DNA of 63,973 nucleotides, counting the filler, from Psammoneis japonica (Eukaryota), in NCBI GenBank assembly GCA_008632985.1. It is 3 parts of 3 records of this genome, joined end to end, with 100 filler letters (N's around TTAATTAATTAA, not from the genome) between each part and the next. Parts side by side here need not be neighbours in the genome. Positions count along the whole stretch, not along the records: positions 1 to 22,713 come from QPGO01000435.1; positions 22,814 to 45,412 come from QPGO01000438.1; positions 45,513 to 63,973 come from QPGO01000476.1. One strand, written 5' to 3'. Under the pieces are notes generated by a model. It was given only the letters and a program-made list of their open reading frames with translations, was not told where the DNA came from and did no database searches. Both the position numbers and the translations under genes were made by a program. Below, in pieces: positions 1 through 63,973 of this stretch (its first letter is position 1; each line of letters starts with the position of its first letter).

Positions 1-1548
1 CTCATGTTACCAACACCGCGAAAGACGGTTGTTTCGCACTGAAAAGAAAAAAAAAATAGAGCAAAAAGAGCAAGGGTAAGCTGAGGGAATATTGAATGGG
101 AAAAAGGACACTCTGATACAACAGAACAACAGTATTGTGTTGTATTCTTACCGATTTGTTTACTATTCCACCAGATTCTGCCAGTAGGATGCCGAAAACG
201 ACGACACCGTTTCTGTCAATGTCGGTCGGTCACGCCTGTCGTGATGCAAGAAATGCCGATACGACAGCAGGTAAGATACGACGTGAAAAAACAACGCCAA
301 GGCAACAACAAACCAAACCAAGCTATCATAATACACCTTACCGTGTTAACGATCACCCCGTATGGTGTTGGGGTGCTATCTGTTGTAATGACTCGGAACC
401 GCGACGTTCCATTTGTTGTGTTGTTGATGGTGGCCCCGTTTCAACGCACGCAAAAAAAAAATTTCGCGCGTGTCGCTGTGGTAAACAAAGAGTTAAGGCA
501 TTCGCACAACCAGCGCACAGTAGCGCAATGTCGGACAGACGACTGTCGTGCTTTTTTTGCGATTTGCGCGACAAATTGCCGTCGACGCCGACGATGACGA
601 TGACATTTTTCTGACTGTCTTACAGAACGACTTTAAAATATGCACTTAATAGCGTTATCAATAATGCTCTTAACAACATCAATACGTAAAGAAAGCTACC
701 CGGACGAGCTCATAATCGTTCGATAATTGAATGCATCAAATGACAGTCAAAAAACAGAGCTCAGTATTGGTATGACGTTTTGCGATTGAACGAAGGCTGC
801 TCCTGGTCTATTTCATGACTTTATATGTTTCGTAAATTTAATAATCTAAATGTCTATAACGCTCAAAGACTCCAGGACACGTCGATGTCGTCGCTATCAT
901 TACGACAACGCACCGCCGTCATGTCGCCGATTTTTAGCGATGCTCGTGTAGCGCGCACGAAGTTTCCAGTAAAAAAAAAAATTCAGAATGTCAAATCGTC
1001 TTGCCATCCATCAGCTCGTTGTGCGAATACGTTAACGCCAATCGCATCAGATTCAAATCTTCAATGATGTAGATAATCGATGAATTGACCCCACAGTCGA
1101 ATTCTCCATACCCGAAAACACAGGAATCGACACTTCATCTGTCAAAAAAGCCCCAGTGGTTGTTGTCGTAGCCTCTAAAATGTGCGCGCATTTTCGCGCA
1201 TTTTTTCGCCGATTTCTCCCTCCACCATGGCGGACCCTACGGCGGGCCACACCGGTGAAGGATGTTCACTCCAGCAATCTCGGATGCCTGACAACATCGT
1301 CAGAGAAGTGCCAGATGTGTCAGCATTGCTTGCAGCGGGAACGGACATGCCTTTTTCGCCTGTTCAAGACATGCCGCGAAATCCGGTGTCGCAGTCCACT
1401 GCCGAAGCACCATCTGTGCCCGCACATGCCCCCCCCTCCAAGTCTTTCTGTGGAGTCGCCAATGGCCAAGAGAGCTCGAGTGTGATTCAAGGTCATTGCC
1501 CATGCCCATGTGATCAATTTGGGAAAGTGTCAAGAAAACATGATGGGT

Positions 1549-1939
1549 GATGCGTTCCAGGTCTAGGTGGGACCTCGCACCACTGAACTGTGACATCGAT
1601 GGTTTTTTGAATCATGTCGTATGTCGCGCACGTAGATTTCTACGTGATTTTTTTCAATGTTTTGTGTCATTTTACGGCACACTTGTTGAGCGATCCGTCC
1701 AACAACTTTTGACATTTTTTGTCACAGCGCGATTCTACAATGTCTTAAGAATCGCGTAGGGCGGGCGCATTTGCAGAAACGTCGAGTGGCAAGAGGCATG
1801 ATTGCACCACAAACTTGGCAGTTTATTTGATGTTGAAGACAAACACATCCATTGGTCAAATTCTCGCACTGCGGAGCTCGCACGCAGAATTCTACGGGCC
1901 CAATGTCACACGGAGTCCCACCCAGGACTGGAACCCGTC
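1549..1939 (+). mobile_element. MITE family 1, copy A (~390 bp non-autonomous TIR element, TpA-eroded)
   Basis: TIRs GATGCGTTCCAG...CTGGAACCCGTC, extending imperfectly to GGTGGGAC. 4-bp TSD GGGT (1545-1548 / 1940-1943). Aligns along its length to the reverse complement of 6244-6632. Confidence 0.9.
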
Positions 1940-2632
1940 GGGTGCAGACGAAGGAGAGGTCAGGCGCCGCGGCGACGGAAGCATTGCAGGAGGACACAAG
2001 TTGGCATTGGCAGAGATTGAAAGAAAGTGGTTGATCCTTGCAAAGCTGGCACATCTGCAATTCATCACATCACATTTGAGGCACGAGATCCGCAGCTCAT
2101 TGTTGCTGAACACGTGTCAGCAACAGCCGCTCTGTTGACTCCACAAAAAAGCTGGCGCGACAATCTGTCATCGCGGTTGAGGAGCTAGACTAGATCAGCA
2201 GCCAAGCAACTGCTGTTAGAAACCACACTCTGTGTGACCATGTTTCATCTGTTTCAGCATGTCACAAAAGAAGAGCTGTTTGTGCAGTGTTTGCAAATTG
2301 GTGCCTCTCTCATTCCGTCATTTCGTGCTTTGCCAAATTTTTGAAAATTCCATGTGGTTTCGAACAAAACAGAAATCCACAATTCTCAATGACAGAAGAT
2401 GGGGCCAATCTGTTTAGATGCACTGTGCCTTCCCTCCCAATGTTGATGAAAGAAACGGGGAAATCGGTGTGAGGATCATTGAGACATCACACCGTAAAGT
2501 GGGAGGCCGGCGGTGGGCACCATTGTGCTGCTGCAGTTTGTTGCGTGCCACTGAGAAATGTGCACATGCAACGATGGATGTTGGCAATGCAAGTTTTGCA
2601 CGCGCATTCCGAGACAAGCGTCATTTTAAGAA

Positions 2633-2702
2633 TTTGCGGCCCACATGCGGGCCGCAAAAATTTGTGATGAGATTTTTGCGGCCCACATGCGGGCCGCAAA
2701 AT
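2633..2702. repeat. Tandem pair of GC-rich hairpins TTTGCGGCCC-ACATGC-GGGCCGCAAA
   Basis: The same ~26-bp inverted-repeat unit occurs twice about 40 bp apart, directly before the truncated 5' LTR. Probably the terminus of another element. Confidence 0.7.
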
Positions 2703-2713
2703 TGCGCAATGAG

Positions 2714-2830
2714 CACAAGATCTAATGAGAGCCGTTGCAACGGCGGGCTTCGCTGAAAGCGACCTCGTTGCCTGGGTCTTTTGCTCACAATTTTGTTGTC
2801 ACTGAAGTCTTCATCTCGTTAGACCTCACA
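2714..2830 (+). repeat. 5' LTR (5'-truncated) of the Gypsy element
   Basis: Matches ~8308-8420 (agagccgttgcaa...ctgaagtcttcatctc...gacctYRca) and ends in CA. Confidence 0.8.
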
Positions 2831-2859
2831 CTGTAATTACAGTCAATTCAAAGAACTGG

Positions 2860-4283
2860 ATGGAGACCAGAATCAATGCAAATAAATTGACTGAACATGA
2901 GAAAAGAGAGCTGCAGGCAAGAGCAGCAGTTTGGGCCATTGAGCATCAGAAGCAAGCGCAACAGCGCAAACAACACAAACAGAATTTGGCGAGCCAAGTG
3001 CATCAGTTGGAGTCAAAGGCAGAGTCCCTGGAAAGGACTGTGTTGAGCAATTGCACCCTGTTTTGCATGATGAGCAAATCATTGAAAGAGCCTTGTGTCA
3101 GCTGTGAAGCAAAGTTTGAGCGCTCTGATTTGGAGGAGAGGCGAAATGGACTCAGTCGCATGATGATGGCAGTGCTCATGGGAGGAAGTGTCCACATTTT
3201 GATGGCACTCATGGTGTTGAAGCCTTGCCATTTGTTGAAGATCATTTTTGTAAAATCGTTGTGAAATTGGAGTTTGCAACCGGAGAAGAGCTGTTTGACA
3301 ATTTTGAGGAAGTGTTGACTGACACAGCTGAGGACAAGTGGGTGAACTTGACTGGTGCCATTGCTGATGCTGACAAGACTGTTGCATGTTTTGATCAGGA
3401 GACAAATCATTTTTATTTGTCTTGTTGTGATGATGAAGCGTGTGACACCATGATTGAGTGTCTGCCAACCTTGAAAAAAGCGTTCAAATCGGAGGCACAG
3501 GCACATGCTGATCACATGGAAACCTTGATTCACTGCACTGACAAGTTGCCAGGAAATGCTCCCCAAGTCAACAAGGCCCAGAAAAAAAGGTGATGTTCTG
3601 CAGTTTTCCTTGTCCCTGGCCTTGGCGTGAGATGTGTGCTGGTGCGGGATGTTCGATGGCCAACGAAAGTCTCGCTGAGATCATCAGTTGTGTGAACAAC
3701 AAAAAATCCTTTGCCAACAAGAGCAGCAACAAGAAGCAAGACAAGAAGAGAAAGGGTGGTGGTCCTTCATCTCAAGCTTCAAGGCGTTCTCAAGGCAACG
3801 GCAACTGAGTCGATCCAGAATCCAGATGTCCAGTGCACACTGACCATGATCATCAGTGGAAGGATTGCACCCTGAAACAGGAGAGCCAAAACTGTTGACC
3901 AAGGTCAGACCATGATGGAGGTTGTGGTGGAGGCCAAGGGAACTGTCAAGGAAGAGGGCAGCAAGGCCAAGGAGGTTGTGGTGACTTCCAAGGTGGTGGT
4001 CAAGGTGGCTGCGGCAACCAAGGCGGTTGTGGAGGCCAAGGTTGCGGCAACTGCAACAATTTCCAGAATTCTCAGGGAAATGGATCCTGTTGTCAAAATT
4101 CAAAATGGCATTCAAAATGGCACCCAAGCCAACGGCGACACCCAAGGCTGTGGAAATCCAGATGGAACAGCTCCTCCTGGTGGCTGGCAAATGGAGTCGT
4201 GCCATTTTCATCAAGGAGGGCCTCGCAAGATGCGTGGTGGAAATGGGTGCAATCAGAGTGGTCGTTTCCCTCAAGGCAAATGA
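2860..4283 (+). pseudogene. Decayed gag-like region of the Gypsy element
   Basis: Broken ORFs between the 5' LTR and the protease, ending in Gly/Gln/Asn-rich low complexity. Assigned mainly by position. Confidence 0.5.
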
Positions 4284-7200
4284 AGTTAGCACAATTGACA
4301 GGGGACGGAAGTGCCCGAGTCAGAGCATGCTGCTCAATCTTTTGTGTTCCATGTGATTGTGACAAAAATGTGTGCTTTGATGTTGATGAAGATGTGGGAG
4401 ACCTGATGAAATCTCATGCCATGAATGAAGAAAATTTGGGCGGCACTTTGGAGTGCGCTGCACCAACCCCAAAAACTGTGACTCCTGAACCATTGAATGT
4501 GGTGCCTGCAATGTCAATGGCAGTGCGTGCAATTCAAAATCAAGAGAGTGAGTGGATTTTGCATGTGTTGTTAGATTCAGGAGGTGCTGACACCATTGTT
4601 CATTCTCGAGTTTTGCCAAAGGGAGCCAATCCGACCATGAATGATGAGGGACAACTGAGTTTCCAGACAGTCGCTGGACAATGTGAATCCTCCCGACATG
4701 TCATTGTGAAGGATCTAGTGTTGCCCAAATTCAACAAGTCCAAACAAGTTGATGGCATCACTGCTCAAGTTTTTGATGCTCCACGCAAATGTGCTGTGAC
4801 ATTGGGCCAAGACTTCCTTTCCAAGGCCGGAACAATGCTTGATTTTTGGTTCAGAATTGTGAAATGGTTGGATGTGTTGATCCCGATGAAGCAATCCAAT
4901 CACTGGAACTTAGCTCAGAATTGGCTGGACATGCTTGATAATCACAAGGAGGATGAAGATGATGAAGACCTCCAAGGTCAAGTCTTCATGTTGCGTGCCA
5001 AGAGTGAGAAGGTGTCAACCACAAAGGTGGCACAATCTCAAACTCATTTGACCCAAGAGCAACATGATGAGCTCCAAACTGTGCTTGAGAAGCATGAAAC
5101 CCTTTTTTACAGAACACTCAGTGGACATCCACACAAGACCGTTCATTTGGAAGTTGATCTCAACGCCGTGCCTTTTCACTCTAAGGCTCACAAAGTGTCC
5201 ATGCAAGACAAAGCTGTTTTCAAGAAAGAACTGCAACACTTGTGCAACATTGGCATCTTGGAACCAGCAGGACCAATGGAATGGGCGGCTGGAACTTTTG
5301 CAGCTCCCAAGAAAGATGGGCAAGTTCAATGGGTGTCCAATTTCCGAGAGTTGAACAAGGTTCTCAAGCAAAAGGTGTGCCCTTTGCCGATCATCCAAGA
5401 TGTTGTTCACCAACATTCAGGATGCAAACATTTGACCAAGTTGGACCTCACGATGTTCTGCTGCCACATTGAACTTGACAAAGAATCCAAAGATTTGCGC
5501 GCCATTGTCTCACTCCGTTTGGGAAATTTTGATGCTGTTGACTGGCCATGGGTTTGAAAACTGCTCCTGACACTGCTCAAGCTGTCATCAAGAAAGTGGC
5601 AAATGGACTTGATGTTGAAACCCACATTGATGACATTGCTCAATTTGACGATTCGTTCAATGCTCACATGCGTCAACTCGACGAGCTGCCATCCAGGCTG
5701 GAAGAAAATGACCTCAAGGTCAATCCGCTCAAGTGTGAGTGGTGCATCCAAGAGATGGAGTTTCCAGGCCATTGGCTTGTGCCTGCAGGAGTTTGACTGT
5801 GGAAGAAGAAAGTGGACACAGTGCTGAAAATGCAACCTCCTCAAACCATGACACAACTGCAATCTTTCATTGGTGCTGTCACTTGCTGTCGCAATGTGTG
5901 GCCCCGTTTCTCTCATGTGCTCACTCCGCTTGTGAAGCTGACAGGCAAGAGCAAACTGGAATGGACTCCTGAGTGTCAACAAGCTTTCAAAGATGTGAGG
6001 ACGTTGATTTTGGACAGCACCCTTTGGGTTTGTCCAGATCACAACAAGCCCTTCCACATTTGTGCTGATTCCTCTGACTGCTGTCAGATGGGAGCCGCAA
6101 TCATGCAAGAAGGGAAGCCAGCAGCATGTTGGTCACGGAAGCTCAGCATGGTGCAACAAAATTGTTGCACCATTGAAAAAGAACTGTTGGTGGTGGCAAT
6201 GTGTTTCAAGGAATTTTGCACCATGTTGCTTGGAGCTGATTGCGACGCGTTCCAGCCCTAGGTGGGACTCCGTGTGACATTTGGCCCGTAGAATTCTACG
6301 TGCGAGCTCCGTAGTACGAGAATTTAATTAATGGATATATTTATCTTCAACATCAAATAAACGGCCAAGTTTGTGGTACAATTATGCCTCTTACCACTCG
6401 ACGTTTTTGCAAATGCACCTGCCCTACGCGATTCTTAAGACATTATAGAATCGCGCTGTAACAAAAAATGTCAAAAGTTTTTGGACGGATCGCTCAATAA
6501 CTGTACCGTAAAATGACACAAAATATCAAAAAATCACGTAGAATTCTACGTGCGCGACATACGACGAGATTCAAAAAACTATCGATGTCACAGTTCAGCA
6601 GTGCGAGGTCCCACCTAGACCTGGAACGCGTCTTGCACTGTTTTTGTCAATCACAAAAATCTCACCTTTTGCACTCTCAATTCTCAACAAGTGCTCAGGT
6701 GGCGACTCTTCTTGGAAGACTTTGCTCCAACCTTTGAGTGCATTTGTGGCAAGGACAATCTGTTGGCTGATTGTTTTTCATTGTTGCCATGCACAGAAAC
6801 TCCTGCGGAAGGGAAGTGAGCTCCAAACAAGGGCAAACTGATTGATCTCAAGGCGATCGACACTGCTGTGTTGCCTCACGAAGAAGAAGAAATGAACAAA
6901 CCAGACCATGCATCTCATTTTTCCTGTTGTCATGAAGAGCCATTGCCCTTCTACTCCTCCTTTGTGGATGATCCCAAATTGTGCGAATCGTTCTTAAACT
7001 GTCCTTCCCTTGATGAAATGCAAAATCTGACGACCATGCAGCAGATCCAAGAACACCAGTTTGCTGATGTGGAATTGAACAACATGTGGCAACAGTGTCG
7101 TGAGCACTTCATTGTTGAACATGTGAATCAGCGCCCTGTGATTTGTTGTTGCACTCATCCAAATGATCCTCCAACCTTGTGGAAAATCTGCACTCTGACT

Positions 7201-8140
7201 GCCTTGTTGCCCGATGTGATGCAGTGGTGTCATGGAATGCCGGGACATGCGGGAGTGCATTGGATGCACTCCACTGTTGGCGTGCATTTTTGTCATCCTG
7301 TCCTGCATCAGATTTGTGAAGAATGTCATTGTGTTGATTGTCAACATTTAAAAACTTTGGGTCCTGGATGTGGGAACCTGCCTGAGCGTGAAGCACCTTC
7401 ACCACCATGGAATGAAGTGGCAGTTGACCTCATTGGTCCCTGGAAGATTAACATCCAGGGCTGTGAGATTGAAGTCAATGCATTGACCTGCACTGATGCT
7501 GTCTCAAACGTTGCTGAACTCACTTGCATTGAAAACAAAACCTCATCTCACATTGCTCAGCAATTTGAAAATTGTTGGTTGTCTTGTTGTCCTTGTCCCA
7601 GCCATTGCATTCATTGCAATGGTGGAGAATTTGTTGGAGAGGACTTTCAATTGATGTTGCAACAGGTGGGAGTGAACAATGTGCCAATGACTTCACGGAC
7701 CTGTTGGGAACATCTCACACACTTTGCTTCATGTTCATCCTCCACAGAACATTGGACAAGCCAATCAATTGGTGGACAATGCATTGGCGATGGCAATGCA
7801 TGCAATGCGATGTGCAGCACCCCATGCTCTCAAGATTTTGCTGGGTGCAATGGCATTTCAACGTGACATGAGACACTAGATCTGCCAGTTCTGGCAGATC
7901 TTGCTGCTGTTCAAGAACATCGCCAAGCAACCATCAATGTAAATCTGGGCAGAGCAAATTCCAAACACACCGATCCTGCAATTTTCAAGTTGGTGGGCAA
8001 ATCCTTGTCAAATCCATTGATCCTGCCAAGCTCAAGCCACAAGCACATGGCCCACATCCCATTGTTCAAGCACGTGCCAATGGCACAATTGTGGTTCAAC
8101 GTGCACCTCATGTGGTGGAATGACTTGACATTTGATGCAT
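4284..8140 (+). pseudogene. Decayed Gypsy pol polyprotein (PR-RT-RNase H-IN)
   Basis: Protease LLDSGG (~4568). RT motifs PKKDG..V.NFRELNK, LDLTMFCCHI (5441) and HIDDI (5623, canonical YIDD). RNase H ADSSD, ACWSRKL, EKELL. Integrase GHAG, AVDLIGPW (~7420), NGGEF. Confidence 0.92.
6244..6632 (-). mobile_element. MITE family 1, copy B (TpA-intact, probably young) inserted in Gypsy RNase H
   Basis: Perfect 12-bp TIR GACGCGTTCCAG / CTGGAACGCGTC and 4-bp TSD TTGC (6240-6243 / 6633-6636). Removing it restores the in-frame RNase H segment [14 protein letters not shown]. Confidence 0.95.
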
Positions 8141-8259
8141 CATCCTGCATCAGACTTTTTCTCCCAACACTTGGGGGTTTCCCTTCTTTTGCCTCAAAAA
8201 CTCTTTTGAATTTTTGAATCTCACATTGTCCTCAGGATTCAAATCATGGAAGGGAAGAG

Positions 8260-8420
8260 TGCAGTGTCACGCACCCCATTTTTCTGACACATGGCATCAA
8301 CGATTCTACAAGATGAGACAAGAGCCGTTGCAATGGGCTTTGCTGAAAGCAACCTCATCACCTTGGTCTTTTGCTCACAATTTTGTCATCACTGAAGTCT
8401 TCATCTCATTGGACCTTGCA
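8260..8420 (+). repeat. 3' LTR of the Gypsy element
   Basis: Begins with TG directly after the PPT, ends in CA, homologous to 2714-2830. Confidence 0.85.
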
Positions 8421-8654
8421 TTGCCGGCATGCATGCCCACGAGAAGCCGGCTGCCAGTCCATCGCGCACAGGACTCGCGGTGTTTTTTTTCTGTGGTGCA
8501 CGTGCAGGGCGCGACACAACCAAATGTCATTGCTGCAAAGCACAAAATTCCTGAGCTTCATCACACTCATTTCAACATGATGCAAGAAATCATGATGCAG
8601 CACATGACACCATCTGTTCCTGGGCCATCTCGACAATTGTCGCCTTTGGCAGCA

Positions 8655-9052
8655 GATGGGTTCCAGTCCCAGCAGGTGGGACTTTTTGTGACATTGGGCC
8701 CGCAGAATTCTACGTACGAGCTCCGGATTACAAGAATCTAATCAATGGATGTTTTTGTCTTCAACATCAAATGAACAACCAAGTTTGTGGTGCAAGTGTG
8801 ACCATTGCCACTTGACATTTTTGCAAACGCGCCTGCCCTGCGCCACTCTCAAGACATTTGCGAATGGCGTAGAAGAAAAAAATGTCAAAAGTTGTTGGAC
8901 AGATCGCTCAATGAGTGTGCCACAAAATGATGCCAAATTTCAGAAAAGTCACGCACCTTTCTACGTGAGCGACATGCGGTGCGATCCAAAAAACTGTCAA
9001 TGTCACAGTTCAGCACTGCAGTGCGAGGTCCCACCTGGAGCTGGAATGCGTC
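8655..9052 (-). mobile_element. MITE family 1, copy C
   Basis: TIRs GATGGGTTCCAG...CTGGAATGCGTC, TSD AGCA (8651-8654 / 9053-9056), internally collinear with copy B. Confidence 0.9.
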
Positions 9053-9594
9053 AGCAGTGTGTCAGGCAACTCTCGCGTTCTTCAGCGGGGGCAAAAAATC
9101 TTGCGGCGCAAGTGGAGGCTGTGTGCTGCTTTCTCAGTTGAGGGTGGCTGACACGCAACTTTTGCCACATTTTTTTCATTGACATGCTTGTTCTCTTTCA
9201 TTTTTTTGTGAAACTTGGTCAGTGTGAGAACCGCTGCAAAACTGTTGATCCCGCAGCTTTGAAATGTGGCGGGCAATGTCACATGTGTTCCACAGCATGG
9301 CAAGGCTGGCAATGAGTGGCGGCACCAAAGTGATGACTGTCAGAAGTGCAGGAAAGAACAAAGCCTTTGGTGTTGCCTTCAGCTGTCTTTGCTGGCACCA
9401 ATGAGTTTCCCAGACAGTTGCTCAAGTGAGGCTCATCCCCCCATGCACTGTGCTGTCTGTCAAGCAGGGCACCACAAACTGACCCAATTGCTTGGCAGCA
9501 GCCTGCCCTCCAGCAACCTGAGGGTTGTTCTGTCATTCACAGAATGATGTGTGTGGACGTCCTGCAATGTGGAAGTTTCAGCACAAGATCTGGA

Positions 9595-10545
9595 GATGCA
9601 CTCCAGCTCCAGGTGGGATCTCATGCTGCTGGACTGTGACACAATCATTTTTTGTCATCCGCTGCATGTTTTGCATGCACATTTGTTCCACACTGCCTGT
9701 TTTGTGAAGCCAAAGGCTTTCTGTTTTCTGCATTTGTGATGACGAAAATGCGCTGGGCACACTCTTTAATGTCTCTGATGAACACACCGGCCATGCTGTC
9801 AACTGTGCACTTGAGGGGGTCATCCCCGTGTTTGTCCTAAAGTTTTGGTGGCTTTTGAACAAGAGTGTTTGTGAGAGATTGTTTTTGAACACAAAATCAT
9901 TTTTTTTGTCACATCGGATTGCTGATCGTGCACAAAAACAAGAACATCAAGAACCACGGTCAAAGCATGACAACAACAAGAATTGTTGACAAATTCTCAA
10001 AATGCAATTTTGGTGGCATTTGAACAAGAATGTTTGTAAGAGATTGTTTTTGAATGCAAAAATTGTTCATGTTGTCACATCTGATCGCCGATCGCGCACG
10101 AAAACGAGAACATGAAGCACCGCAATCGAAGCACAACGATGATGACAATCGTTGACATTTCTCAAAAACATGGCATTTTGTGTGCAAACTTTTCTTGTGT
10201 GTGAGATCTTTGATGCACAAAGAACACAACACAAAGGAGAGTTGGTGCACGGACTGCCTCTGTTGCAGACTTGTGGCTTGCCATTTTTCACTGCTGTGAA
10301 GCACGGTGAAATTCAGGAAAAATCATGCAAAACACGAGCTGTTCAGCCAAATTTGAGCTAAAACAAGTGGCGACTGACCACCCTTAAATTGTGGAGGAGG
10401 AGATTTGTTTGCGAAATTGCCTCTTTTTCTGTTTGCGATCATTTGCACACTTGCTCTGCTTGACAATTTCACTGTGGAGCTCGTCGCACTTGGAACTCTG
10501 CTGGCCGAATGTCACAAAAAGTCCCACCCAGGACTGGAGCTCATC
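9595..10545 (+). mobile_element. MITE family 1, longer variant D (~950 bp)
   Basis: Degenerate TIRs GATGCACTCCAG...CTGGAGCTCATC, TSD TGGA (9591-9594 / 10546-10549), internal duplicated segment (~9858-9957 vs ~10024-10123). Confidence 0.8.
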
Positions 10546-11005
10546 TGGAACATTCTTGCATGGAAGGGTGCAAGCTGGGCATCCGTGTTAAAAAAACAGA
10601 GTTGCTGGCTGTTGACGGCTTTTCCGAACAGCAAAAAATGTTGTGGGCCTCTGCCTTCCCAAAAAACAAGTTTGCCCAGGGGACTGCCCATCTCTCTCAA
10701 CATCAGAGTGGCAATTTGTTTCCAGCTGTGCACTCATCTTCAATGAGACTCTTCATCATTTCCCTGTCTTCTTCCACCGCGGCATTGTGGAGTTTCAAAA
10801 CCAGCTCACAGGAGAAGCTGCAGTCATCAGAATTTGTCAGAAAGAAGAAAGGACAGGCAGGTTGCTCACTTGCACTGTGGGCTCTTCAATGGCTGTTTTG
10901 CAATTGCAGGAATGGAAACCGGGTGCTGCCAGAATTTGGATTGGAAGTTTCAACAAAGTTGCTCAAAAAGATCACGGCGAAGTGTGGGAAATGCGAGCCA
11001 TTTTA

Positions 11006-54000: not shown

Positions 54001-56671
54001 NNNNNNNNNNNNNNNNNNNNNNNNNNNNNNNNNNNNNNNNNNNNNNNNNNNNNNNNNNNNNNNNNNNNNNNNNNNNNNNNNNNNNNNNNNNNNNNNNNNN
54101 NNNNNNNNNNNNNNNNNNNNNNNNNNNNNNNNNNNNNNNNNNNNNNNNNNNNNNNNNNNNNNNNNNNNNNNNNNNNNNNNNNNNNNNNNNNNNNNNNNNN
54201 NNNNNNNNNNNNNNNNNNNNNNNNNNNNNNNNNNNNNNNNNNNNNNNNNNNNNNNNNNNNNNNNNNNNNNNNNNNNNNNNNNNNNNNNNNNNNNNNNNNN
54301 NNNNNNNNNNNNNNNNNNNNNNNNNNNNNNNNNNNNNNNNNNNNNNNNNNNNNNNNNNNNNNNNNNNNNNNNNNNNNNNNNNNNNNNNNNNNNNNNNNNN
54401 NNNNNNNNNNNNNNNNNNNNNNNNNNNNNNNNNNNNNNNNNNNNNNNNNNNNNNNNNNNNNNNNNNNNNNNNNNNNNNNNNNNNNNNNNNNNNNNATGTG
54501 TCATGGCCATAAGCTGTGAGGCGCACCGTCACATTTGGATTGAACTCGGGGATCTTGATGTCGAAAGAGCCATTTGTTTGACATTCGTGATTTTTCATCG
54601 CCCACAAACTGGGATTTCAACTGAGTCGAGTTGATGTTGGACGTGTTTCAAAGCACTGCGTTTGATGAAACAATTGAGGGCTCTGGAATTATGGCATTTT
54701 ATGCCATGGAGACTTAAAACAGTAAATGGGTTGACAGTCAAGCAGTGATCGGGTTTGCCAACATTTCCAAAAATGTGACAAGCAACAAAAATTGCATCAC
54801 TCAACAACCAACAACATCTCAAGAGACAGAAACAAGAAAAGTGACTCCTCTTTGCACTTAAATTAAAAGAGACAACAATGCACAACAAACATTTGAAAGG
54901 ACAAGAACAAGCTTGAATGCATGGAACCAGAAGAGAGTCAATGAATCGCTCTTGTTTTGAACCTCTTGACCTGTTCTGTCCATGATGGTGGTTGGCTGAA
55001 AGGTTGGTGGTGGTTTTTTTGTGTGACTTGCAGCTTGAGGCATGTTGATGCATGAACACATGGCCCATGTGTGGTGTCACCTTTGGAAAGTGCCACTTGT
55101 GGAGCTTGAGTGGACAACTCTCTGTGCTCAAGCTTTGTCCGCCAAATGCTCCATCAAAGTCCAGATGATGCTGCCACATCCCACCCGACCATTGACACAA
55201 AACAGTTCTTGCAAAATGTTGTTGCCCATTTCCCTCTTCCTCTGCAGAGCAGCCCTCTTGGTGACAGTGCTGCCCACATGCCAGAATGTGCTCAAGAATG
55301 CTTTCCATTTTGCCAGCAAAGATGCCCAACGCGGGGCTGTGTGGGCTCGAATCTCTCTCAAGACAAGCTGACATTTGTGCCTGGCACTGGCGGCAATGCT
55401 CAGCCCTCCTTCCTGTTTGACTTCCCAGGAGTGTGCCCAGATCTCCTGCGTGCTGAGTGGCTCAACCACAAGAGTCGCTGTCTTTGTCAGTTTTGTCAGC
55501 AGGATGTGCCAAGGCTGCTCTGGCCATGTGTGCGCAAGGACAGCTGCGACAGCGCTTTCTGCTGTCAGCAAAGAGTGTGAGCTGGCTGGACTGCCCAACC
55601 CCACACTTCACAGCTCCTTGGCAGTCACTCTAAATCACGTGCCAACTTGGGGTCAACCACACCTGGCTGGCTGCAATGCAAAGACAGCTGTGGCAGTGCT
55701 TTGTGGCAGAGTGTGAGCTCCTGGCTGGGCTCCCAACCCCACACTTCACAGCCCCTCAGCAATGGCTCCCAACCAAATGACAACTTGGGACCAATGGCTG
55801 TGAAGTGCCATTGTTTCAAATTCCTGTGCCTGGCCCCTCACACAGCTTTGCACAGGGTCAACATGTGTGTGTGGCCTTTGCAAGATGGGCCCCTGGCTGG
55901 CTGCTGACTCAGCCACGGCTTGCAACAAGAAGCCACCACAACACAGAGCATTGTGGGGTGAGTGCAGCACAGCTTGAACAAGCAAACCATGCTGAGATCA
56001 CCCAGAGTTGGCTGCTGTCCTGGGGCTCCATTCAAAGCTGAGCTGGGCTGCTTGGCTCCTTGGTGTGCAGCACATGCTTGGCATCACATTCTTGTTGCCA
56101 AGCAGCCACATGGCATGTGCCCACCATTTGTGTCTGCAACAGCGACCCCAGCCACAAAGAAAAAGTTGAACCTGGTTTTGTGGTTGAAGAGTGAAGAAAC
56201 TGTGAGTGAAGTTGGGTTCAAGATTTGTTGGCAATGCCAAGTGGGCAGCCAAAGAGAGGCACCAAAAATGGCTGTTCTTGCTCATTTCTCAAGAGGAGCT
56301 TGCACTCATGATGCAGGGTCTGAAGCAAGCACCAGTCAAGATGACAGTTTTTTCTCTCTGCCCCACTTGAAACACAGCCTTTGAGTCAATGTGGTGCTCC
56401 TTCAACAATTCGCACACACACTGGGATGAGCAGAGCTGGAGCCAGGGCAGCTGGCCTGGCAGGGCTTGGCTGACACCCAAGCTGGGCTGCTCAGCTTGGT
56501 GGCACACACTCAGTGTCACATCTCTTTGCACCTGCAGCAACCACCCTGGACCAAAAGAAGCCAGTGCAACTCTGGCCCTGGTTGCATGGTCAATTGTGTG
56601 TGTGTTCAATGGTCGAATCCCCTCTTTTTTTCTCTTTTCCTTCAACCGGCCACGAACATGAAAAATTGCCG
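48046..56671. mobile_element. Array of a ~2.6-kb non-autonomous TIR element: three direct units (from 48046, ~50660 within the gap, and 53281) plus one inverted, more diverged unit (~54497-56671)
   Basis: Left TIR CGGCAATTTTTTCATGTTCGTGGCCGGTT at 48046 and 53281, reverse complement ending at 56671. Right TIR AACCAGCCACGAGCATGAAATCTTTACCG at 53248-53276. Subterminal 54-bp tandem at ~50490-50590 and ~53102-53200. Confidence 0.8.
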
Positions 56672-57274
56672 AATTCTTCGGATTCTTGGAATTGTCATTG
56701 AGGACATGAGAGGTTGTGGGGACATCCTAAAAAATCGATAAATTCCCTGCGACGGGTGCGTGGCACGGTTTTTCAGGAGAGCTCGAAAGTTCTGAAAAAT
56801 TGGGATTGCCGGCGTGGCATGTTCAAAAATGCATTCAGTTGCACACAAAGACAATTTGTCGTGAATTCTACACGAAAAAGTCACATTGGGGAAAACACAT
56901 CAAACAACAAGTGAGTTTGTGTGATGCGCTGTCATGGCGATAAATTGGAAAAAAAGAGTGTCCGAGCACCTCACCACAGCCCCAAAAATGGCATGAGACA
57001 TCAAACACAACGGTCATCCGCGTCACTGGTGCGGCGGCCATGCTGCTCAGCCGCCACAATGCCAGCCCTGGCGGCAGGGCCCTGTGCACGTACAGGCAAT
57101 GCAGCATGCAACAGCACACACCCACACCCACAAAGAAAGACAAGTGGTCAATGCTCCCCGCAGGCCTGGTTCAGGATTTTCTGCTGTGCGAGAAACGCAC
57201 ACTGGCAGTGCGACACGCGCCTCATTCAATCATTGCCAAAAAGCGGCGACATGGTGGTGGTGCATTGTTGCAGC

Positions 57275-60200
57275 GATGGCAATGACAGTGCACTCCCCAG
57301 CATTCGGGAGTGAAGCAAGAGGTCTGCACATGTCATGTGGACAATTTTGTGTTGTGCAGATGTCTGCACAATCAGTGCGTTGCATGCATTTCTGCGCAAC
57401 ATCTCTTGCACTACAAATTCGGAAACAATTGCGCGATTTCTCGCCCAAAGCAATGATTGGAGCTTTGCGCAGATGTCCATTGAAGCAAAAGAGGGGAAGG
57501 AAAGACACCAGCAAACACCACAGCCTTGAACGGATCGAGCGCCAATGGCGGCGTTCTTCGCTGCAGCTCGTCGCCGCCTGCCGAGGCTGCAGCAGCTGCT
57601 GCAATTTTGAACAAAGAGCAACACATGCCTGCACTGCCACCAGCATGGCTGCCACCCCTCCTGGTGGTGCCATGGGTGCCAGTGCACCTCCAGCACCCCC
57701 AAAAACCTGTCAAGAAAAATGGACAGCTGACAGCGACCACCTTGGCAGGGCATGTTCCGAGCTCCTGCCACCAATGCCACAACCCCGTTGGACTCAGACG
57801 CCACTCTGGATCATGTGCTGGCACCCAGCAACGTCATGCCCAAAGCATTTTTGGCTCTGGCCAACGACAGCGCCGGTGGGTTGCAAGTCACCTGCCTGCA
57901 CCGCCCTTCAGCCTGCACCCATGACCCATTTGCCACGTCACCCTGGGGTGGAGGAGTCTTCTGCTTCCAAGGGAGTGCACCACCCGGGAACTTCATCAGT
58001 GTCCCCAGCGTGCCTGATGACCCCTTTGAGATGGCAGGACCACAAGCAGTTCCAACAGTTGCCAACATGGCGGCGTTGGAAGGGGCGCTTCTCAACAAAG
58101 AGGATTTGACCCCCCCCTCAAACTGACAGCGCACCCCGGACACCGAGACTGCCATGGTTCGAACCATGGCTCAATCCCCACACACTTGCATGTGTCTGGT
58201 GCTCACCCACAATCTGACCCCTCTGCAAGCCTGGAGAGAGCCAGGGGGCACCATTCAGAATGACGGCAGAGCCAGGAACCTGGCGCCACTCATCGACTGG
58301 TTGCAAGTTGCCCTCACCTCCAACACAGCCGCTGCGCTTGATCCTGTCCACTGCATGGATGATCGAGTTGCCACCTTGCCACCATTGGCAGTGGATGCTG
58401 GGTTGCAAGAACATTGGTGGAAAATCCTCCAACAAGACCTGCCAGCCTTGGACACTTGCTGCGAGTTCTGCATGTGAATGTGAGCTTGTCAAAATGCACA
58501 GTTTTGCGCACCCAAACAAATTTTCCTCCACATGCACGTGAAGGTCTGCAGAAAAGTGAGCAAACACACTGAAAACATTTTCAATGCTGACAAAAAAAAT
58601 GGCTGTTTGATGGCTCGAACAGGCAACTGCCGAAGTGCTTCTCAAAAGTGGTCCAGATTGCATGATCCACAGATGCACACTGTCAATCAACATGAGTGCA
58701 CTGTTGAGTGAACAGAGCTTGCCATCCAACAAATGGAGTCGCTGTGCACAAAATGGAACACTCCATCTGTGCCACATTGTCTGCATGGGTTTGTGCACTT
58801 TCAGTCATGTCTCGCACACAAAAAAGTGGGTGCCCGCCAAAGCAAGCTCTTTTGCCTCAAAAATGTGTTGAGATGATGGGGATCTTGCCATTTGCTTCCA
58901 CACTTGTGGCCCTCTTTCTTTGCTGTCTGTCCTGAATGGCATCCCACTCAAACAGAGCTCCATCAGCAAAGGAAGTTGACGACACATTGCTGGAGAAGGT
59001 GCACTCTTTTTTGTCAGAATGGCAACACTTTCTGGCTCCTGGTAACTTTGTTCTGTGTTGGAGGTCTCTGACTGGCTGTTGGGGAGACCATTTTGAAAAA
59101 TGGGTGCAGCCCACCAATGGGGCATTGCAAGATGAATCCCGCTGTCTGCTGGCATGTTCAATTGCACCTTCAGAGCCAGCTGCCACTTCTGCTGCCAGTG
59201 GAGCATCACACTGTGTTTTAAAGAGAATGAACAAAACAAGACGCCATTGCAAAGAACACACGAGCAAGGCTGTTCCTGAGCTTGTGGTGATGTGCAACTT
59301 GGAGCACCCTGGGCAAAAACAGGGTCGTCCTTTTCAGGCCAGACACAGCTGTCACAGCTGTTGCCTTCCCAAGCAATGCAGAAAATCTTGGTCCTGATTT
59401 CTTGCCATGCCCACCTGGTTGGTCTCTCTTCCACAATTTCATCCAACTTCAGTTGTCGTGGACTGACCCTCATTGTGATTTCAAATCCACCAAACTTGTC
59501 CACTGCAAGTTGCACGGCCAGGTGCGCTGTGACAAATTGGCCGGGTGGTTGTTCAGGTGGCTTGGCTTTGGGTGATTCAAGTCCTCCTTCATGTCTTGGA
59601 GGCATGATGAAAGTGTTGCTCAAGAGAAAATAAAGAATGCACCCTTGTCAGGAATGTCTTGCATGAACTTGATGATTTTGGGAGCAAACTTGGGTGGAGT
59701 CAATGTGTGCTTCACCCTGTCACTCAGCAGCTGGACCAGTCATTTGCAGACAGTGTTGGAGTCACATCACACTCACATCGGCACAAAAAGCTCATCTCCC
59801 CCACTTGCATTCAAAAGAGAGTTTGCAGCTTGCCTTCTGGTCCTTGATGGTCCATGTGAAAGTTGGCAAACAGAAGGTCGAGGGCAAGTGTGTGGTTGAC
59901 AACCTTCTGCTCCACAAATTCACAGAGCTCTTTGTTGTCCATTGGAGCTGCTGCATCATCATGTCCCTGTCTTTTCACTTGCTGCTGGACTTAAAACAAC
60001 ATCCTGGACTGTTCCAAGATGGCGTCAATGATCAAAAAGCAGATTTTTCCAAGAGCACAAGACACAGAATGTGGCAGCCATGGAGGCTGCCCATCTTCAG
60101 CTCTGCCAGAATCCAAGCCAGCCATTCACAGAGAATGAAGTGGAGCTCATTGAGTTTCTCTTTGCATTCTTTGTTGGTGGTTTCTTCCAACAGCTCATCA

Positions 60201-60876
60201 AGGTGCATCTTGATTTGCATGTTCTTGATGATTCTTGGACTGAAAGACAGTGAGGCATTTTGGCCTGCTTGCAGTCACACTCCCCAGACACAATCGCAAT
60301 GATTTGCGGAACATGTGCTCTGCTTCATTTTGAGTTCACACCATCAGCAGGGAAATGAACAGCACTGCATCAGCAGCTGATGGCGAACATGCTGGTGGCC
60401 CTCATCAACAGCCCTGATGTGGTGCTTGACTTGCCCCTTGGAGTGGACTTTTGCACCAGGCTCCAGCTGGACCACCTTGCTTGTGCCCCATGCCTGGTGC
60501 AATGTGTGTCCCTGGATCACAATGGTCCAGAAGCTGGGCCCCTGGCTTTGGATTGTGCTGCTGAATCCAGCCAGCAGCTTGATCAGCATCCCAAGCAGGG
60601 TTCCTTGGCAGGACTCACCTCACAGGTGTGCCAGCTTGGGTCCGTTTTTGCTGAGTTGGATGCCGGGCGGGTCAAGCCAGGCCAGGTTCAAGGCATCAAC
60701 ATTGACCGGCCGCTTGCTGCCATTGTCGATCGCACCGCACATGATGATGGCGATGACAGCGCACTCCCCAGCGTTTGGGAGTGAAGAGGTCTCCACAACA
60801 TGCAGACAATTTTACATTGCGCAGAAATCTGCGCGCAATCAGTGGGCAGCATGTTTCTGCGCAATGTCTCTCGTAA
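57275..60876 (+). repeat. Diverged ~140-bp direct repeats at ~57275-57415 and ~60746-60876
   Basis: GATGGCRATGACAGYGCACTCCCCAGCRTTYGGGAGTGAAG...GACAATTTT...AATCAGTG...TTTCTGCGCAA in both. The core also occurs inverted at ~62606-62625. Confidence 0.7.
57640..58480 (+). pseudogene. Decayed transposon ORF, possibly ORF1 of a diatom tyrosine-recombinase (DIRS/Ngaro-like) retroelement
   Basis: Fragments LHRPS...SPW.G.VF.FQG and LTP.QAW..L..LIDWL.VALT recall ORF1 of diatom YR retroelements. This is from memory and unverified; no RT or recombinase found downstream. Confidence 0.3.
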
Positions 60877-62127
60877 CTTCCGACCCAACTCCCTGAATGA
60901 AGGGAGAAAGAGTTCAGATGCAATGCTCAGGTCTGCTCTCTAGCTGCCAGAGAGCAGGCATGTAGACCTCGGTGTCAAGAGGGCCAGAAACTGCACAAGA
61001 GCCAAGCACGTGCATTCCCACACAGATGCAGCACAAAAACACAAAGCGGCGCTCCATCACGACTCCTCGCGACACACCACCTGACAACAATCCATCAAAA
61101 TGGCGCCATCCACATCTTTCTGCAGCTCCTCTTTCACTTGCCTGATTTCTCCAAAAGGGCCCAGGGGCAGCTCGCACACTTGTGTCATGACAGAACAGTG
61201 CAAACACAAGTTGTTTTTTCATTCCAAAATCTCAGAATGGTGCAGTGCAACAGGGGTTGTCAAAGCAAACTCGCATGTTGGCTGCATCAGCCAAATCAAC
61301 ACCTTGTTTGCTGTTCACTCTGGAGCAACAACAGAGATGCAGCACCCTGACAAAATGCGCTCTGCACTCGACAAATTGCGAAGCTCAAAATTCTTGTTGG
61401 AAGACACTCTGGATCTGCTTTAGAGACTTGACACAATGACTCATTTGTCCTGTCATTCACCCTCTTAATTTGTTGCATTGGCCAACAACTGGGGTGAGTG
61501 AGTCACATTTTCCAGGTCACAAACTGCAGCACAGCCAAAAGAAGCAATCTGTGCCTTTGGAACCATCATGATGCACTGGTCTGCCAAACAAAACTCCACA
61601 TCACCACCCAAAGATGGGGGGAGAACTCTTGTCAAAAGTGTGCAATGATGTGTTTGATCTGTTGAGAGCTTGCCCAGCTTAAGACATCACAGCTCCAAGT
61701 TGCCACATTTGTTGTGAACTCTTCCTGATGCTGTGTCTGTGGCTTGGCTTCGTTGTTGAATTGCCGTGGCCATCGCACTTCAGAAATGACACTTGACAAG
61801 AAAAAGTGTCTCTGGGACACCTCACGACAACGGAGACCCTGCAGAACAAAAGAACAATGCAGAAAGAGAAAACACATGCAAGTTGGATGGTNNNNNNNNN
61901 NNNNNNNNNNNNNNNNNNNNNNNNNNNNNNNNNNNNNNNNNNNNNNNNNNNNNNNNNNNNNNNNNNNNNNNNNNNNNNNNNNNNNNNNNNNNNNNNNNNN
62001 NNNNNNNNNNNNNNNNNNNNNNNNNNNNNNNNNNNNNNNNNNNNNNNNNNNNNNNNNNNNNNNNNNNNNNNNNNNNNNNNNNNNNNNNNNNNNNNNNNNN
62101 NNNNNNNNNNNNNNNNNNNNNNNNNNN

Positions 62128-62160
<33 letters not shown>
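62128..62160. repeat. (CA)n microsatellite at gap edge
   Basis: Direct reading. Other short SSRs at ~24044 (CT)n, ~24945 (CTA)n, ~28022 (CT)n, ~29664 (GT)n. Confidence 0.9.
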
Positions 62161-62162
<2 letters not shown>

Positions 62163-63215
62163 GCCTCAATGAAACACACAGCATGAGTGCATGAATGTGG
62201 CAATGCATGAGGTCGGTTGTGATGCAACAAAAGCAATGTTGACAATGCGAACCTCCAGCAAGAATTTTCACCATCAGCTGCCCACATGAACCTGTGCGCT
62301 CTCAAGCTTGTCACACACCTTGTGCTGTGGCGTGCGATGTTCCGTTGAGAGTGCACTGCAAAGTGCCTCAGAAACAACCACATTTTTGAAATCGGCAAAA
62401 CGCCATTGTTCGTGTCATTTTGCGTGTTGTTTTGCGTTGAGAGCCAGAAAACACTCCCAAAATCTGTTCTGCAGGAAAAATGCACTGAACCCTCACAGAT
62501 TTGGGTTGCACCAGGCCACGTGGAAAATGAGCGGGCCGAGAACTGTGGCGCACCCACTCAAATTTTATGCACATGAAGCTCACCAGTGTCTGAGCATTTT
62601 CTTTCTTCCGAATGCTGGGGAGTGGATGACAGTGACATGTCTCGCTCAGAATCTTTTGTCATCACAAGAAAACCAGATCTGTGTTTAAAGTGCTGTCACT
62701 CCATTGCCAGCCAGGCCGGCACCGGCCGCCAACCCACACTTCCAGCACACCGTCAAGTGCGGCAGAAGCTGACTCTAGGATCAGCCGGAGTGGGCATCAC
62801 CGTGAGATGATGCCCCTCCGAAACAGCTGGCAACTGAGCAAGTGCCGTGAAGCACGTCATGCTTTGCCTTCTTGAGGCTGTCTTTCAGGTGTGGTTTGTC
62901 CATGGCAACCCAATTCATGATCCATGAAGTGGAGTGGGACATGTGATTGTTGACTGAATCTGAGAGCACTTCTCTGTCCTCAGTGACAGAAAATGAAGAT
63001 GACTGGGTGGAAGAAAACAACAACTCCTTGCTGCTGTCTAAATGGCAGATGAGTGTCCATGCAGAGACCATTGCAGGAGCCGAAAGACTGGTGTCGTGAT
63101 GTCGGCACTGCTGTTGTTGTTCTTGTGAGCCAAGTGGCTCAAAAGCAAACTGCATTGCGCGACGCACACGGAACTGAGAGCACACATGATCATGTGTGAC
63201 AAACTAAAATCTTGC

Positions 63216-63973
63216 TCAAATCCTGTCACTCCCCAGTTTGCTTGAGGGGTCAACAGCGACAGATTCGAAGTCGGATTGGTTGAAAGCCTCAGGATCGAAG
63301 TTCCAAAACATTAGAGGATGAAGGAGGTTCCAGATTTGGGAGCAGCCCCAATGCTTGCTGAGGATGTCAGCCGGGTTGCGGGAGCCTTCGACAAAATGAA
63401 GCTCAAGGAAACCGGAGGCAATCGCCTCACTCACATGATGGAACAAGAGGGCGGTGTGTCGCTTGTGTAACTTGGAGTGCAGGATGGCAGCACCGTCCAC
63501 AACCAACTTGTTGTTTTCCAGGAAGATCATCATTTGCAGGGCACGGAGAGACACTGCTCCAGAACAGACACTGTCGACGGGCACGTCTGTGAGGTGTCCA
63601 TCGGCAACAAGCCTTGCTTTGTGCTGTCCGTCATGTTTGACGTCACAGACGAGATGCACCCGGATCTTCTTGTGTCCTGATGGAGCACTGGAATCGTTGT
63701 GGTGGTCCGCAGTCATGAAGACCTCGCACTCATCAAGCTGAGTCATCTCGGTCCGTGCATCTCCCCAACTTGCGGTTGCCGTTGTGCTCATCAAGGGCCA
63801 TGGCATGCCTGTGGTCCCGTGGCACTTCATGCCCACACTTGCATCGTGGCGCAGTGTGAAAGGAGCACAACTTGCTTGGTTGGCCATGCGGAACAGCTTT
63901 CTTCTGATGAAGGGCCATCTTGCAAAAGCGTCTCCATCCTTCGGTTTCTAGAAGGCCGTGCTCACACGCGTAG
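63216..63973 (-). pseudogene. Ty1/Copia RT/RNase H remnant with internal deletion
   Basis: GHKKIRVHLVCDVKHDGQHKARLVADGHLT..SVCSGAVSLR fused directly to C-terminal RNase H KLHKRH.AL.FH.V.EAIA...NPADILSKHWGC. Confidence 0.88.

Follow-up and report, generated by a model that had tools for sequence, protein, structure and literature searches.

Near-complete TpA loss points to targeted DNA-level hypermutation of transposon-derived DNA in the diatom Psammoneis japonica

What removed almost every TpA dinucleotide from the transposon-derived DNA of the diatom Psammoneis japonica? We addressed this question in a stretch of 63,973 nt from assembly GCA_008632985.1 (hereafter the window), in which parts of records QPGO01000435.1, QPGO01000438.1 and QPGO01000476.1 are joined by filler. 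An initial annotation of this DNA had described blocks almost free of TA and had attributed them to an undescribed process that converts TpA to TpG or CpA in repeats, the reverse of fungal repeat-induced point mutation (RIP). Our results indicate that the transposon-derived DNA has very probably undergone targeted hypermutation at the DNA level, of the same kind as a process reported in the chlorarachniophyte Bigelowiella natans (bioRxiv 10.64898/2026.01.13.699255).

Across the window, TA occurred 1137 times, an observed/expected ratio (o/e) of 0.30; TG (5911) and CA (5682) each had an o/e of 1.6, and CG (2315) an o/e of 0.67. Bins of 200 bp contained 5-15 TA across genes and 0-2 across long blocks. 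A two-state hidden Markov model on TA density called nine TA-depleted segments totalling 36,418 nt, about 60% of the window's non-N bases (Table 1). These segments contained only 126 TA (o/e 0.06; 0.35% TpA), whereas about 1,500 would be expected at the genic TA frequency, together with 3995 TG and 3827 CA (o/e 1.72 each) and a CG o/e of 0.43. The remaining 24,501 nt contained 1011 TA (o/e 0.58), with an o/e of 1.00 for CG and of 1.24 each for TG and CA. AA and TT were not depleted in the blocks (o/e 1.27 and 1.22), and the G+C fraction was 0.50 in depleted DNA versus 0.47 in the remainder. Per dinucleotide, the gain of TG plus CA was 0.061, compared with losses of 0.038 for TA and 0.028 for CG (0.066 together). 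Genic segments kept a TA o/e of 0.57-0.63, indicating that the depletion is not shared by genes, as had been proposed, and the two spot counts given earlier (one TA in 48121-49880 and six in 16501-16560) were exact. Of the DNA in the earlier list of blocks, the stretch at 1.1-1.9 kb was only partly depleted, and the list lacked both a block at 41.9-44.5 kb and the TA-normal islands lying within blocks at 6259-6616, 50035-50587 and 52650-53309. Within 1-20 kb, depleted segments also had raised depth (147 to 80,888, versus 34-54), where depth is summed over contigs from sequencing runs aligned to the window, not over reads; across 1894-6258 it was 147-1334, compared with about 34-54 over the single-copy gene.

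One degraded Ty3/Gypsy retroelement occupies the plus strand at about 3.9-7.9 kb; its frames and domains are listed in Table 1. Its gag-protease-reverse transcriptase (RT) frame is open only because TAA and TAG are absent. The same effect extends to the window as a whole, in which 53 stop-to-stop open reading frames (ORFs) of at least 200 aa were found, many overlapping within depleted blocks: TA-free DNA has no TAA or TAG stops, only TGA, and long ORFs therefore appear in all six frames. Most long ORFs in the blocks of transposable elements (TEs) are thus artefacts of missing stops, and among 134 ORFs of at least 95 aa in these blocks, one had a real TE domain in the ORF-by-ORF Pfam scan. Three independent retroelements had been named in the initial annotation. 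The Gypsy element is supported by profiles, but the Copia element at 63.2-63.9 kb had a weak match (E 0.069), and that at 32.4 kb had no Pfam match in the ORF-by-ORF scans. The remaining blocks are unclassified repeats, so that only some of the blocks can be assigned to TEs by profile. No convincing terminal repeats were found for the blocks at 18-22.7, 26.4-29.8 and 31.9-34.2 kb, and self-BLAST revealed no pair of long terminal repeats (LTRs) in the window.

Besides retroelements, the window contains a family of miniature inverted-repeat transposable elements (MITEs) of about 400 bp with inverted ends, with copies at 1549-1940, 6243-6632 and 8649-9053 that range from TA-normal to strongly TA-depleted. 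One contig joins position 6243 to 6652 without the insert, indicating that the copy at 6243-6632 inserted later into the Gypsy element. Summed contig depth was 80,888 over this young copy (about 34-54 for unique DNA) and 13,828 to 80,888 over the MITE copies, compared with 34-54 over the single-copy receptor gene, suggesting a family of over a thousand copies. A DNA transposon is thus hit as well as retroelements.

The direction of change was read from conserved protein columns and from related copies. In an alignment of the Gypsy protease-RT region with 34 relatives, nine columns had Tyr in at least half of the relatives, and at these the window had Cys five times, His twice, Ser and Phe once each, and never Tyr. 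At the seven aligned Tyr-majority columns of the integrase (16 ordinary relatives), it had Cys at five, His at one and Phe at one, so that Cys or His occupied 13 of the 16 columns combined (Cys 10, His 3, Phe 2, Ser 1, Tyr 0). A change of TAY to TGY (Y, pyrimidine) turns Tyr into Cys, and a change to CAY turns it into His. In the same protease-RT alignment, Leu was kept at 21/25, Val at 7/8, Gly at 10/12 and Trp at 3/3 columns. Conserved Arg was kept at only one of nine RT columns (Gln 4, His 3, Lys 1) and one of seven integrase columns, and this replacement by Gln, His or Cys is due to the CpG process considered below. The peptide strings from which the direction had first been read were present where they had been reported, namely HIDD at 5623, FCC at 5456, CRS and HVDA at 32.45-32.65 kb, and GHKK, VCDVK and SVCS at 63.57-63.68 kb on the minus strand. 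Without TA, a retroelement can encode neither the YxDD box nor any other Tyr.

Nucleotide copies led to the same direction. Among 46 differences between the MITE copies at 6243-6632 and 1549-1940, 18 were TA in the former and TG or CA in the latter, and none was the reverse; at the 28 TA of the young copy, the copy at 1549-1940 reads CA 12 times, TG 6 times and TA 10 times. At four sites the three MITE copies read TA, TG and CA, respectively, which implies a TA ancestor if each copy changed once. Similarly, the repeat at 11006-11411 differed from its TA-normal copy at 14160-14558 by eight TA to TG/CA changes and no reverse change. The direction is therefore from TA to TG or CA, in agreement with the initial annotation and with the spectrum of a metagenome copy given below. 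Note that a spectrum of "lineage-specific" changes among the three MITE copies was set aside as a polarised test, since a tree of three taxa has no root.

An explanation without any mutation process, in which the blocks are foreign or ancestral DNA of odd composition or an assembly or sequencing artefact, has in its favour that the window, with its N runs, is a draft scaffold and that the matching DNA run may be the window's own source. We give it practically no credence: TA is needed to encode the YxDD box or any Tyr, the residue that relatives carry at those columns; a single family has both TA-normal and TA-free copies; four TA-free stretches are matched by contigs of sequencing run X1 with no difference; and the same signature recurs in metagenome contigs from two assemblies that were deposited separately (JGI and ENA records).

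These metagenome sequences allowed a polarised spectrum to be obtained. Of the RT and integrase relatives that were at least 150 aa long (183 in total), 11 contained less than 1% Tyr. In five Tyr-poor integrases, the 34 residues at Tyr-majority columns comprised 13 Cys, 13 His and 1 Tyr, with the same column Cys in one copy and His in another, and Arg was kept at 48/84. A scan of metagenome contigs with protein P0034 gave 35 loci (L001-L035) of one Gypsy family; these loci share no DNA with the window and therefore come from another organism. In the integrase region, twelve copies were TA-normal (37-75 TA, o/e 0.50-0.61), L012/L013 were intermediate (23 TA, o/e 0.27), and L001/L002, L005 and L010/L011 had only 1-8 TA (o/e 0.01-0.09). 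We scored L010 against the consensus of 11 TA-normal copies. At TA, A>G was found at 23/40 and T>C at 15/38 positions, that is, 38 of about 40 consensus TA sites (95%) were now TG or CA. Outside TA, A>G was found at 2/256 and T>C at 4/221 positions (6/477 A/T transitions; 1.3%). CpG transitions numbered 2/27 and other C/G transitions 3/425, and there were seven transversions, so the changes were almost wholly A>G or T>C (38 at TA plus 6 other A/T transitions, versus 5 at C/G). Four TA-normal control copies showed 0-2 changes of 43-46 per TA class. The copies are thus nearly untouched or nearly saturated, which, with the background of about 1% in L010, points to bursts rather than slow decay.

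A pooled set of five hypermutated copies, each compared with its nearest TA-normal copy, gave the same specificity. Of 405 TA sites, 336 were now TG or CA and 47 were kept; transitions were found at 244/3990 non-TA A/T sites, 63/339 CpG sites and 216/3380 other C/G sites. The share of adenines changed to G was 336/814 for those following T, compared with 74/1337 following A, 119/1459 following C and 51/1198 following G. The process is TpA-specific, with no WA motif (W, A or T), and the specificity that had been proposed for it is borne out by this spectrum. The same numbers bear on error-prone patch repair of the Pol eta type, an earlier candidate in which WA to WG changes would be introduced into methylated repeats, triggered by T:G mismatches derived from 5-methylcytosine (5mC). 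The Pol eta hotspot does include TA, and CpG decay coexists in the same blocks. However, AA was not hit in these copies, and AA and TT are not depleted in the blocks of the window; the block at 26819-29349 combines near-complete TA loss (o/e 0.04) with little CpG loss (o/e 0.60); and L010 carries its 38 TA changes beside the two CpG transitions. We therefore regard the Pol eta route as highly improbable and drop it as a candidate.

With regard to strand, TG and CA outcomes were about equally frequent in the depleted DNA of the window, as expected from the earlier claim that both DNA strands are hit. Runs tests on the order of TG and CA gave z values of -1.8 to +1.3 in nine blocks, and, for four copies in which the ancestral TA sites are known, of -1.7 to +1.0; no strand-coordinated clusters were found by these tests. 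Both strands are thus hit about equally, with interleaved outcomes. Deaminase-type editing directed against mobile elements is known from AID/APOBEC and ADAR; however, APOBEC changes C in strand-coordinated runs of single-stranded DNA and ADAR acts on RNA, whereas the process in the window changes A:T in DNA, on both strands and without runs. A specific version of the latter, ADAR-like A-to-I hyperediting of retroelement transcripts fixed by reverse transcription, would suit the Gypsy and probable Copia elements, both being retroelements, and ADAR usually favours U 5' of the edited A (as stated in the B. natans preprint). RNA editing predicts A>G on the sense strand only, but the pooled copies had 143 T>C beside 193 A>G, and His appears besides Cys at Tyr columns. 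Moreover, a MITE with terminal inverted repeats is also hit, and the changes reported in B. natans arise in integrated DNA during vegetative growth. The RNA-level route can accordingly be given hardly any probability. In the half-mutated copy L012, sense-strand TA sites preceded by a purine were converted far more completely than their complements; together with the A>G excess on the sense strand of the pooled copies, this hints at a mild strand or transcription effect in the metagenome copies.

Flanking bases had a clear influence on TA loss. In the window, the residual TA density relative to genic DNA was 0.9% for RTAY (R, purine), 6.9% for RTAR/YTAY and 27% for YTAR; among the TA surviving in depleted DNA, TTAA was the most over-represented and ATAT was absent. 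The metagenome copies kept TA at 1/106 RTAY, 4/72 RTAR, 19/131 YTAY and 23/97 YTAR sites. The order in which contexts are hit is thus RTAY > RTAR/YTAY > YTAR. The ratio of TG to CA outcomes in these copies was 75:32 at YTAY and 26:40 at RTAR (Fisher p 1.2e-4), and 49:44 at RTAY. By 3' base, A>G at TA was found at 39/59 sites before C, 22/44 before T, 17/38 before A and 10/37 before G; by 5' base, T>C at TA was found at 28/51 sites after G, 6/23 after A, 12/46 after C and 8/49 after T. Change thus falls preferentially on an A before a pyrimidine or, equally, on a T after a purine.

Two chemistries fit this tendency. Adenine deamination in TAY is the one that we tentatively favour over thymine oxidation in RTA. 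TadA and ADAT2-3 target A34 of tRNA after the conserved U33, and before C in bacterial tRNA-Arg (U-A-C). TAC is likewise the most converted context here (the 39/59 above); these are, however, RNA enzymes whose DNA activity was engineered, as in TadA-derived adenine base editors, or is claimed for amphioxus ADAT2. In the thymine route, a TET/JBP-type dioxygenase would oxidise T in 5'-RTA-3' of silenced transposons to 5-hydroxymethyluracil (5hmU) or 5-formyluracil, giving T>C and hence TA to CA, which reads as TG on the opposite strand. 5-Formyluracil mispairs with G, and the 5'-base counts suit a T after R equally well. By contrast, 5hmU itself pairs normally with A, the pooled copies show no excess of TC to CC changes (T>C outside TA, 110/1850), and the literature search found no report of 5hmU in diatoms. 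The precedent comes from dinoflagellates, in which 5hmU is made by a TET/JBP homologue, lies mostly in repeats and helps silence TEs, and in which, according to earlier work, TA and TC are the dinucleotides where thymine replacement is preferred (PMC11572971, parts covered). It is a modification aimed at TEs in a protist of the Stramenopiles-Alveolata-Rhizaria (SAR) group, with TA as a preferred site, but it is an epigenetic mark, and no T>C footprint is described for it in those parts of the paper. On this evidence we consider the thymine route unlikely, although it is the main rival to adenine deamination.

CpG was also reduced in the depleted blocks (o/e 0.16-0.60), and the suggestion that a second process acts there is upheld by the overall contrast in CG o/e between depleted and remaining DNA. 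TA and CpG loss were partly uncoupled: the block at 26819-29349, described above, contrasts with that at 48075-50034 (TA 0.02, CG 0.16). A separate 5mC-type decay of CpG to TpG/CpA thus acts on the same DNA and accounts for CpG loss only; it resembles the TpA process in yielding TpG and CpA in the same blocks, and differs in removing CpG, not TpA. The duplicated segments 25666-30301 and 40777-45412 were 99.46% identical, and their five substitutions, four of them CpG transitions, all lay in the TA-poor block at 26819-29349. The TA-normal parts of this duplication (25666-26818 and 29350-30301, with their partners) had 0 substitutions and normal TA, although this pair may have arisen very recently or through assembly; duplication alone is either not the trigger or has yet to act. 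In the 93% pair 48045-50256/54496-56672, 8-9 of the 83 differences were adjacent CA/TG double differences, as expected if TA or CG sites were resolved independently after the copies separated. Near-identical duplications in the window (25666-30301/40777-45412, 99.5%; 48335-50615/50953-53227/54496-56672, 99% and 93%) lie in some cases beside N runs and could be real or two alleles assembled in series.

The likeness to fungal RIP lies in the inactivation of mobile DNA, the dinucleotide preference, the near-saturation and the sharp contrast with neighbouring genes. RIP, however, changes CpA to TpA (C>T) and lowers G+C, whereas the process in the window destroys TpA and raises G+C. Neither RIP, with its opposite direction, nor 5mC deamination, which removes CpG rather than TpA, can alone explain the pattern, as the initial annotation had argued. 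Its description of the process as repeat-restricted holds in that the depletion is confined to transposon-derived DNA, but is not borne out in the sense of RIP: RIP is triggered by duplication before meiosis, whereas duplicated TA-normal DNA in the window is unaffected, the young MITE copy is TA-normal, and the main target in B. natans is reported to be single-copy.

The term "undescribed" must be withdrawn, since TpA to TpG/CpA hypermutation is reported in B. natans. In mutation-accumulation lines of that species, 231 of 302 nuclear single-nucleotide mutations fell in two integrated viral regions, a single-copy nucleocytoplasmic large DNA virus (NCLDV) and a virophage; 230 of these 231 were A>G or T>C, according to the preprint almost exclusively at TpA, with a rate of about 6e-7 versus 3.5e-10, in 11 of 15 lines. 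The genome also has 124 TpA-poor, CpA+TpG-rich clusters, and RT and DDE domains are over-represented among its low-TpA coding sequences. As the enzyme, its authors suggest a DNA deaminase that is ADAT2-like, and they cite a claim of DNA activity for amphioxus ADAT2 (10.64898/2026.01.13.699255). The process in P. japonica shares with it A>G and T>C changes at TpA, TG and CA outcomes, restriction to foreign or mobile DNA and an on/off state among lineages, as well as the long-term footprint of TpA-poor, CpA+TpG-rich clusters with RT/DDE enrichment. The two differ in host (Rhizaria versus the diatom, a stramenopile), in extent (de novo but unsaturated, with 3.3% TpA in the NCLDV region, versus the saturated 0.35% in the window) and in target (mainly single-copy virus versus multi-copy LTR elements, a MITE and unclassified repeats). 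In the main-text parts covered, the preprint contains no occurrence of the word diatom and no flanking-base or strand-run analysis. Our literature searches yielded this preprint as the one description of the signature, and no report that TEs of diatoms lose TpA; term searches of diatom papers on TEs, chromatin and DNA methyltransferases (PMC4504042, PMC9998398, PMC2806351) returned nothing on TpA loss. As far as these searches reach, the novelties are the occurrence of the process at saturation in a diatom, its targeting of ordinary LTR elements and of a MITE, an additional case from the environment in which one family has both hit and unhit copies, the RTAY/TAC context, the lack of strand runs, and the exclusion of the Pol eta and RNA-editing routes.

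From these patterns we infer an enzymatic process, probably carried out by an adenine deaminase more than by a thymine modifier, and the mode of targeting. In the mechanism that we propose, an enzyme would be recruited to silenced or foreign DNA and would deaminate adenine in 5'-TAY-3' on either strand. The resulting inosine would pair with C, and after replication the site would read TG, or CA when the other strand was hit. A changed site would no longer be a target, and TA loss would therefore become nearly complete. All Tyr codons and many Ile, Leu and Val codons would be destroyed, and the element would be inactivated. It is possible, though we hold it to be somewhat doubtful, that diatoms (Stramenopiles) and chlorarachniophytes (Rhizaria) share an old genome-defence enzyme, an adenine deaminase of double-stranded chromosomal DNA that recognises the near-palindromic RTAY in silenced mobile DNA and acts on either strand.

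Several points weigh against the main reading, that of a targeted hypermutation by adenine deamination. The P. japonica case is a footprint in sequence. Adenine deamination in TAY and thymine modification in RTA are inseparable by sequence, since either one is the other as read on the complementary strand. At six MITE sites, TA in the young copy is CA or TG in both others, and an unrooted tree cannot polarise them. The metagenome copies L001, L005 and L012 share 67-72% of their TG/CA outcomes and so are not fully independent (L010 shares 50-62% with them), and the host of this family is another eukaryote. In the pooled copies, A>G is in modest excess over T>C on the sense strand. Finally, the context rule is statistical: RTAR gives TG at 26/66 sites, and YTAR is mostly converted.

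The coordinates of all features are given in Table 1, including two host genes that served as TA-normal controls. The repeat unit at 48075-50034 recurs at 50953-53227 (99%) and, inverted, at 54496-56672 (93%). In the receptor gene (14383-17666), adjacent ANF_receptor-like and 7tm_3 ORFs form one gene with two short introns. A 1926-nt contig of sequencing run X2 aligned to 14757-15006, 15091-16275 and 16350-16840, skipping 84 nt (15007-15090) and 74 nt (16276-16349); because its contig omits these introns, run X2, which is labelled "DNA?", behaves like cDNA/RNA data. X2 contigs also cover TA-poor repeats at 10-14.5 kb, with about 5% differences. The oxidase gene (30349-32013) encodes a protein with 51% identity to an Asterionellopsis glacialis protein, followed among the named relatives by proteins of Ditylum, Seminavis and Grammatophora. 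These relatives place the host among the diatoms, as the initial annotation had assumed, and show that the named databases contain no close relative of it; for Nup107 the best match was 38% identical. An ORF of 858 aa at 34236-36812 encodes a protein kinase whose N-terminal part weakly matches the four-helix domain MLKL_N (E 5.7e-5, short of the curated cut-off). The part junctions at 22714-22813 and 45413-45512 each consist of 44 N, 12 bases and 44 N.

Table 1. Positions and properties of TA-depleted blocks, mobile elements and control genes in the window
Feature	Position	Strand	Observations
TA-depleted block, 5' part of degraded Ty3/Gypsy	1894-6258		20 TA in 4365 nt; TA o/e 0.07, CG 0.45, TG+CA 1.68
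TA-depleted block, Gypsy 3' part and unclassified repeats	6617-14169		44 TA in 7553 nt; TA o/e 0.09, CG 0.53, TG+CA 1.74
TA-depleted block, unclassified repeat	18367-22758		9 TA in 4392 nt; TA o/e 0.03, CG 0.38; no Pfam match
TA-depleted block, little CpG loss	26819-29349		6 TA; TA o/e 0.04, CG 0.60
TA-depleted block, possible Copia remnant (unconfirmed)	32245-33880		2 TA; TA o/e 0.02
TA-depleted block, duplicate of 26819-29349	41928-44464		TA o/e 0.04
TA-depleted repeat unit, most CpG-eroded	48075-50034		2 TA; TA o/e 0.02, CG 0.16
TA-depleted repeat unit, second copy	50588-52649		2 TA; TA o/e 0.02, CG 0.19
TA-depleted block to window end	53310-63972		37 TA in 10,663 nt; TA o/e 0.06, CG 0.38
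Gypsy gag-protease-RT frame	3899-5554	+	945 relatives at E<=1e-10 (phmmer)
RT core, HIDD (5623) in place of YxDD box	5542-5793	+	Pfam RVT_1 E 1.4e-6, 28.6 bits versus cut-off 29.6
Gypsy RNase H domain	5797-6258	+	Pfam RT_RNaseH_2 E 1.3e-19
Gypsy integrase frame	6820-7863	+	39 relatives at E<=1e-5; named ones from diatoms (Cylindrotheca, Ditylum)
Probable Copia-type RT fragment	63219-63947	-	Weak Pfam RVT_2, E 0.069; GHKK, VCDVK and SVCS strings
Young MITE copy with terminal inverted repeats, TA-normal, inside Gypsy	6243-6632	-	28 TA, o/e 0.91 (6259-6616)
MITE copy, partly hypermutated	1549-1940	+	90.6% identity to 6243-6632
Older MITE copy, more hypermutated	8649-9053	-	At the young copy's 28 TA: 4 TA kept, 12 CA, 6 TG
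Control: class-C G-protein-coupled-receptor-like single-copy host gene (ANF_receptor and 7tm_3)	14170-18366	+	171 TA; TA o/e 0.57, CG 0.86; Pfam 7tm_3 E 5.9e-29
Control: host NADPH-oxidase/ferric-reductase gene	29350-32244	+	TA o/e 0.63, CG 1.09

As for its meaning, the process is not peculiar to one species, and ordinary transposons are hit as well as integrated viruses. The preference for RTAY over YTAR, with TAC as the best A>G context, provides a concrete and testable constraint on candidate enzymes. Families with many copies in mixed states, such as the MITE family, whose summed depth exceeds that of single-copy DNA more than 1000-fold, lend themselves to the detection of new events, and relating the footprint to the gene content of diatoms and other SAR lineages offers a direct route to the gene. 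Public databases meanwhile hold Tyr-free "proteins" (P0019, P0020, P0032, P0034 and P0047) that are translations of hypermutated transposons. If a deaminase shared across SAR is indeed responsible, it would be a natural eukaryotic DNA adenine deaminase, the mirror image of RIP, erasing every Tyr codon of its targets; such an enzyme could be found by matching the TA-loss footprint with gene presence, and may represent a natural adenine base editor.

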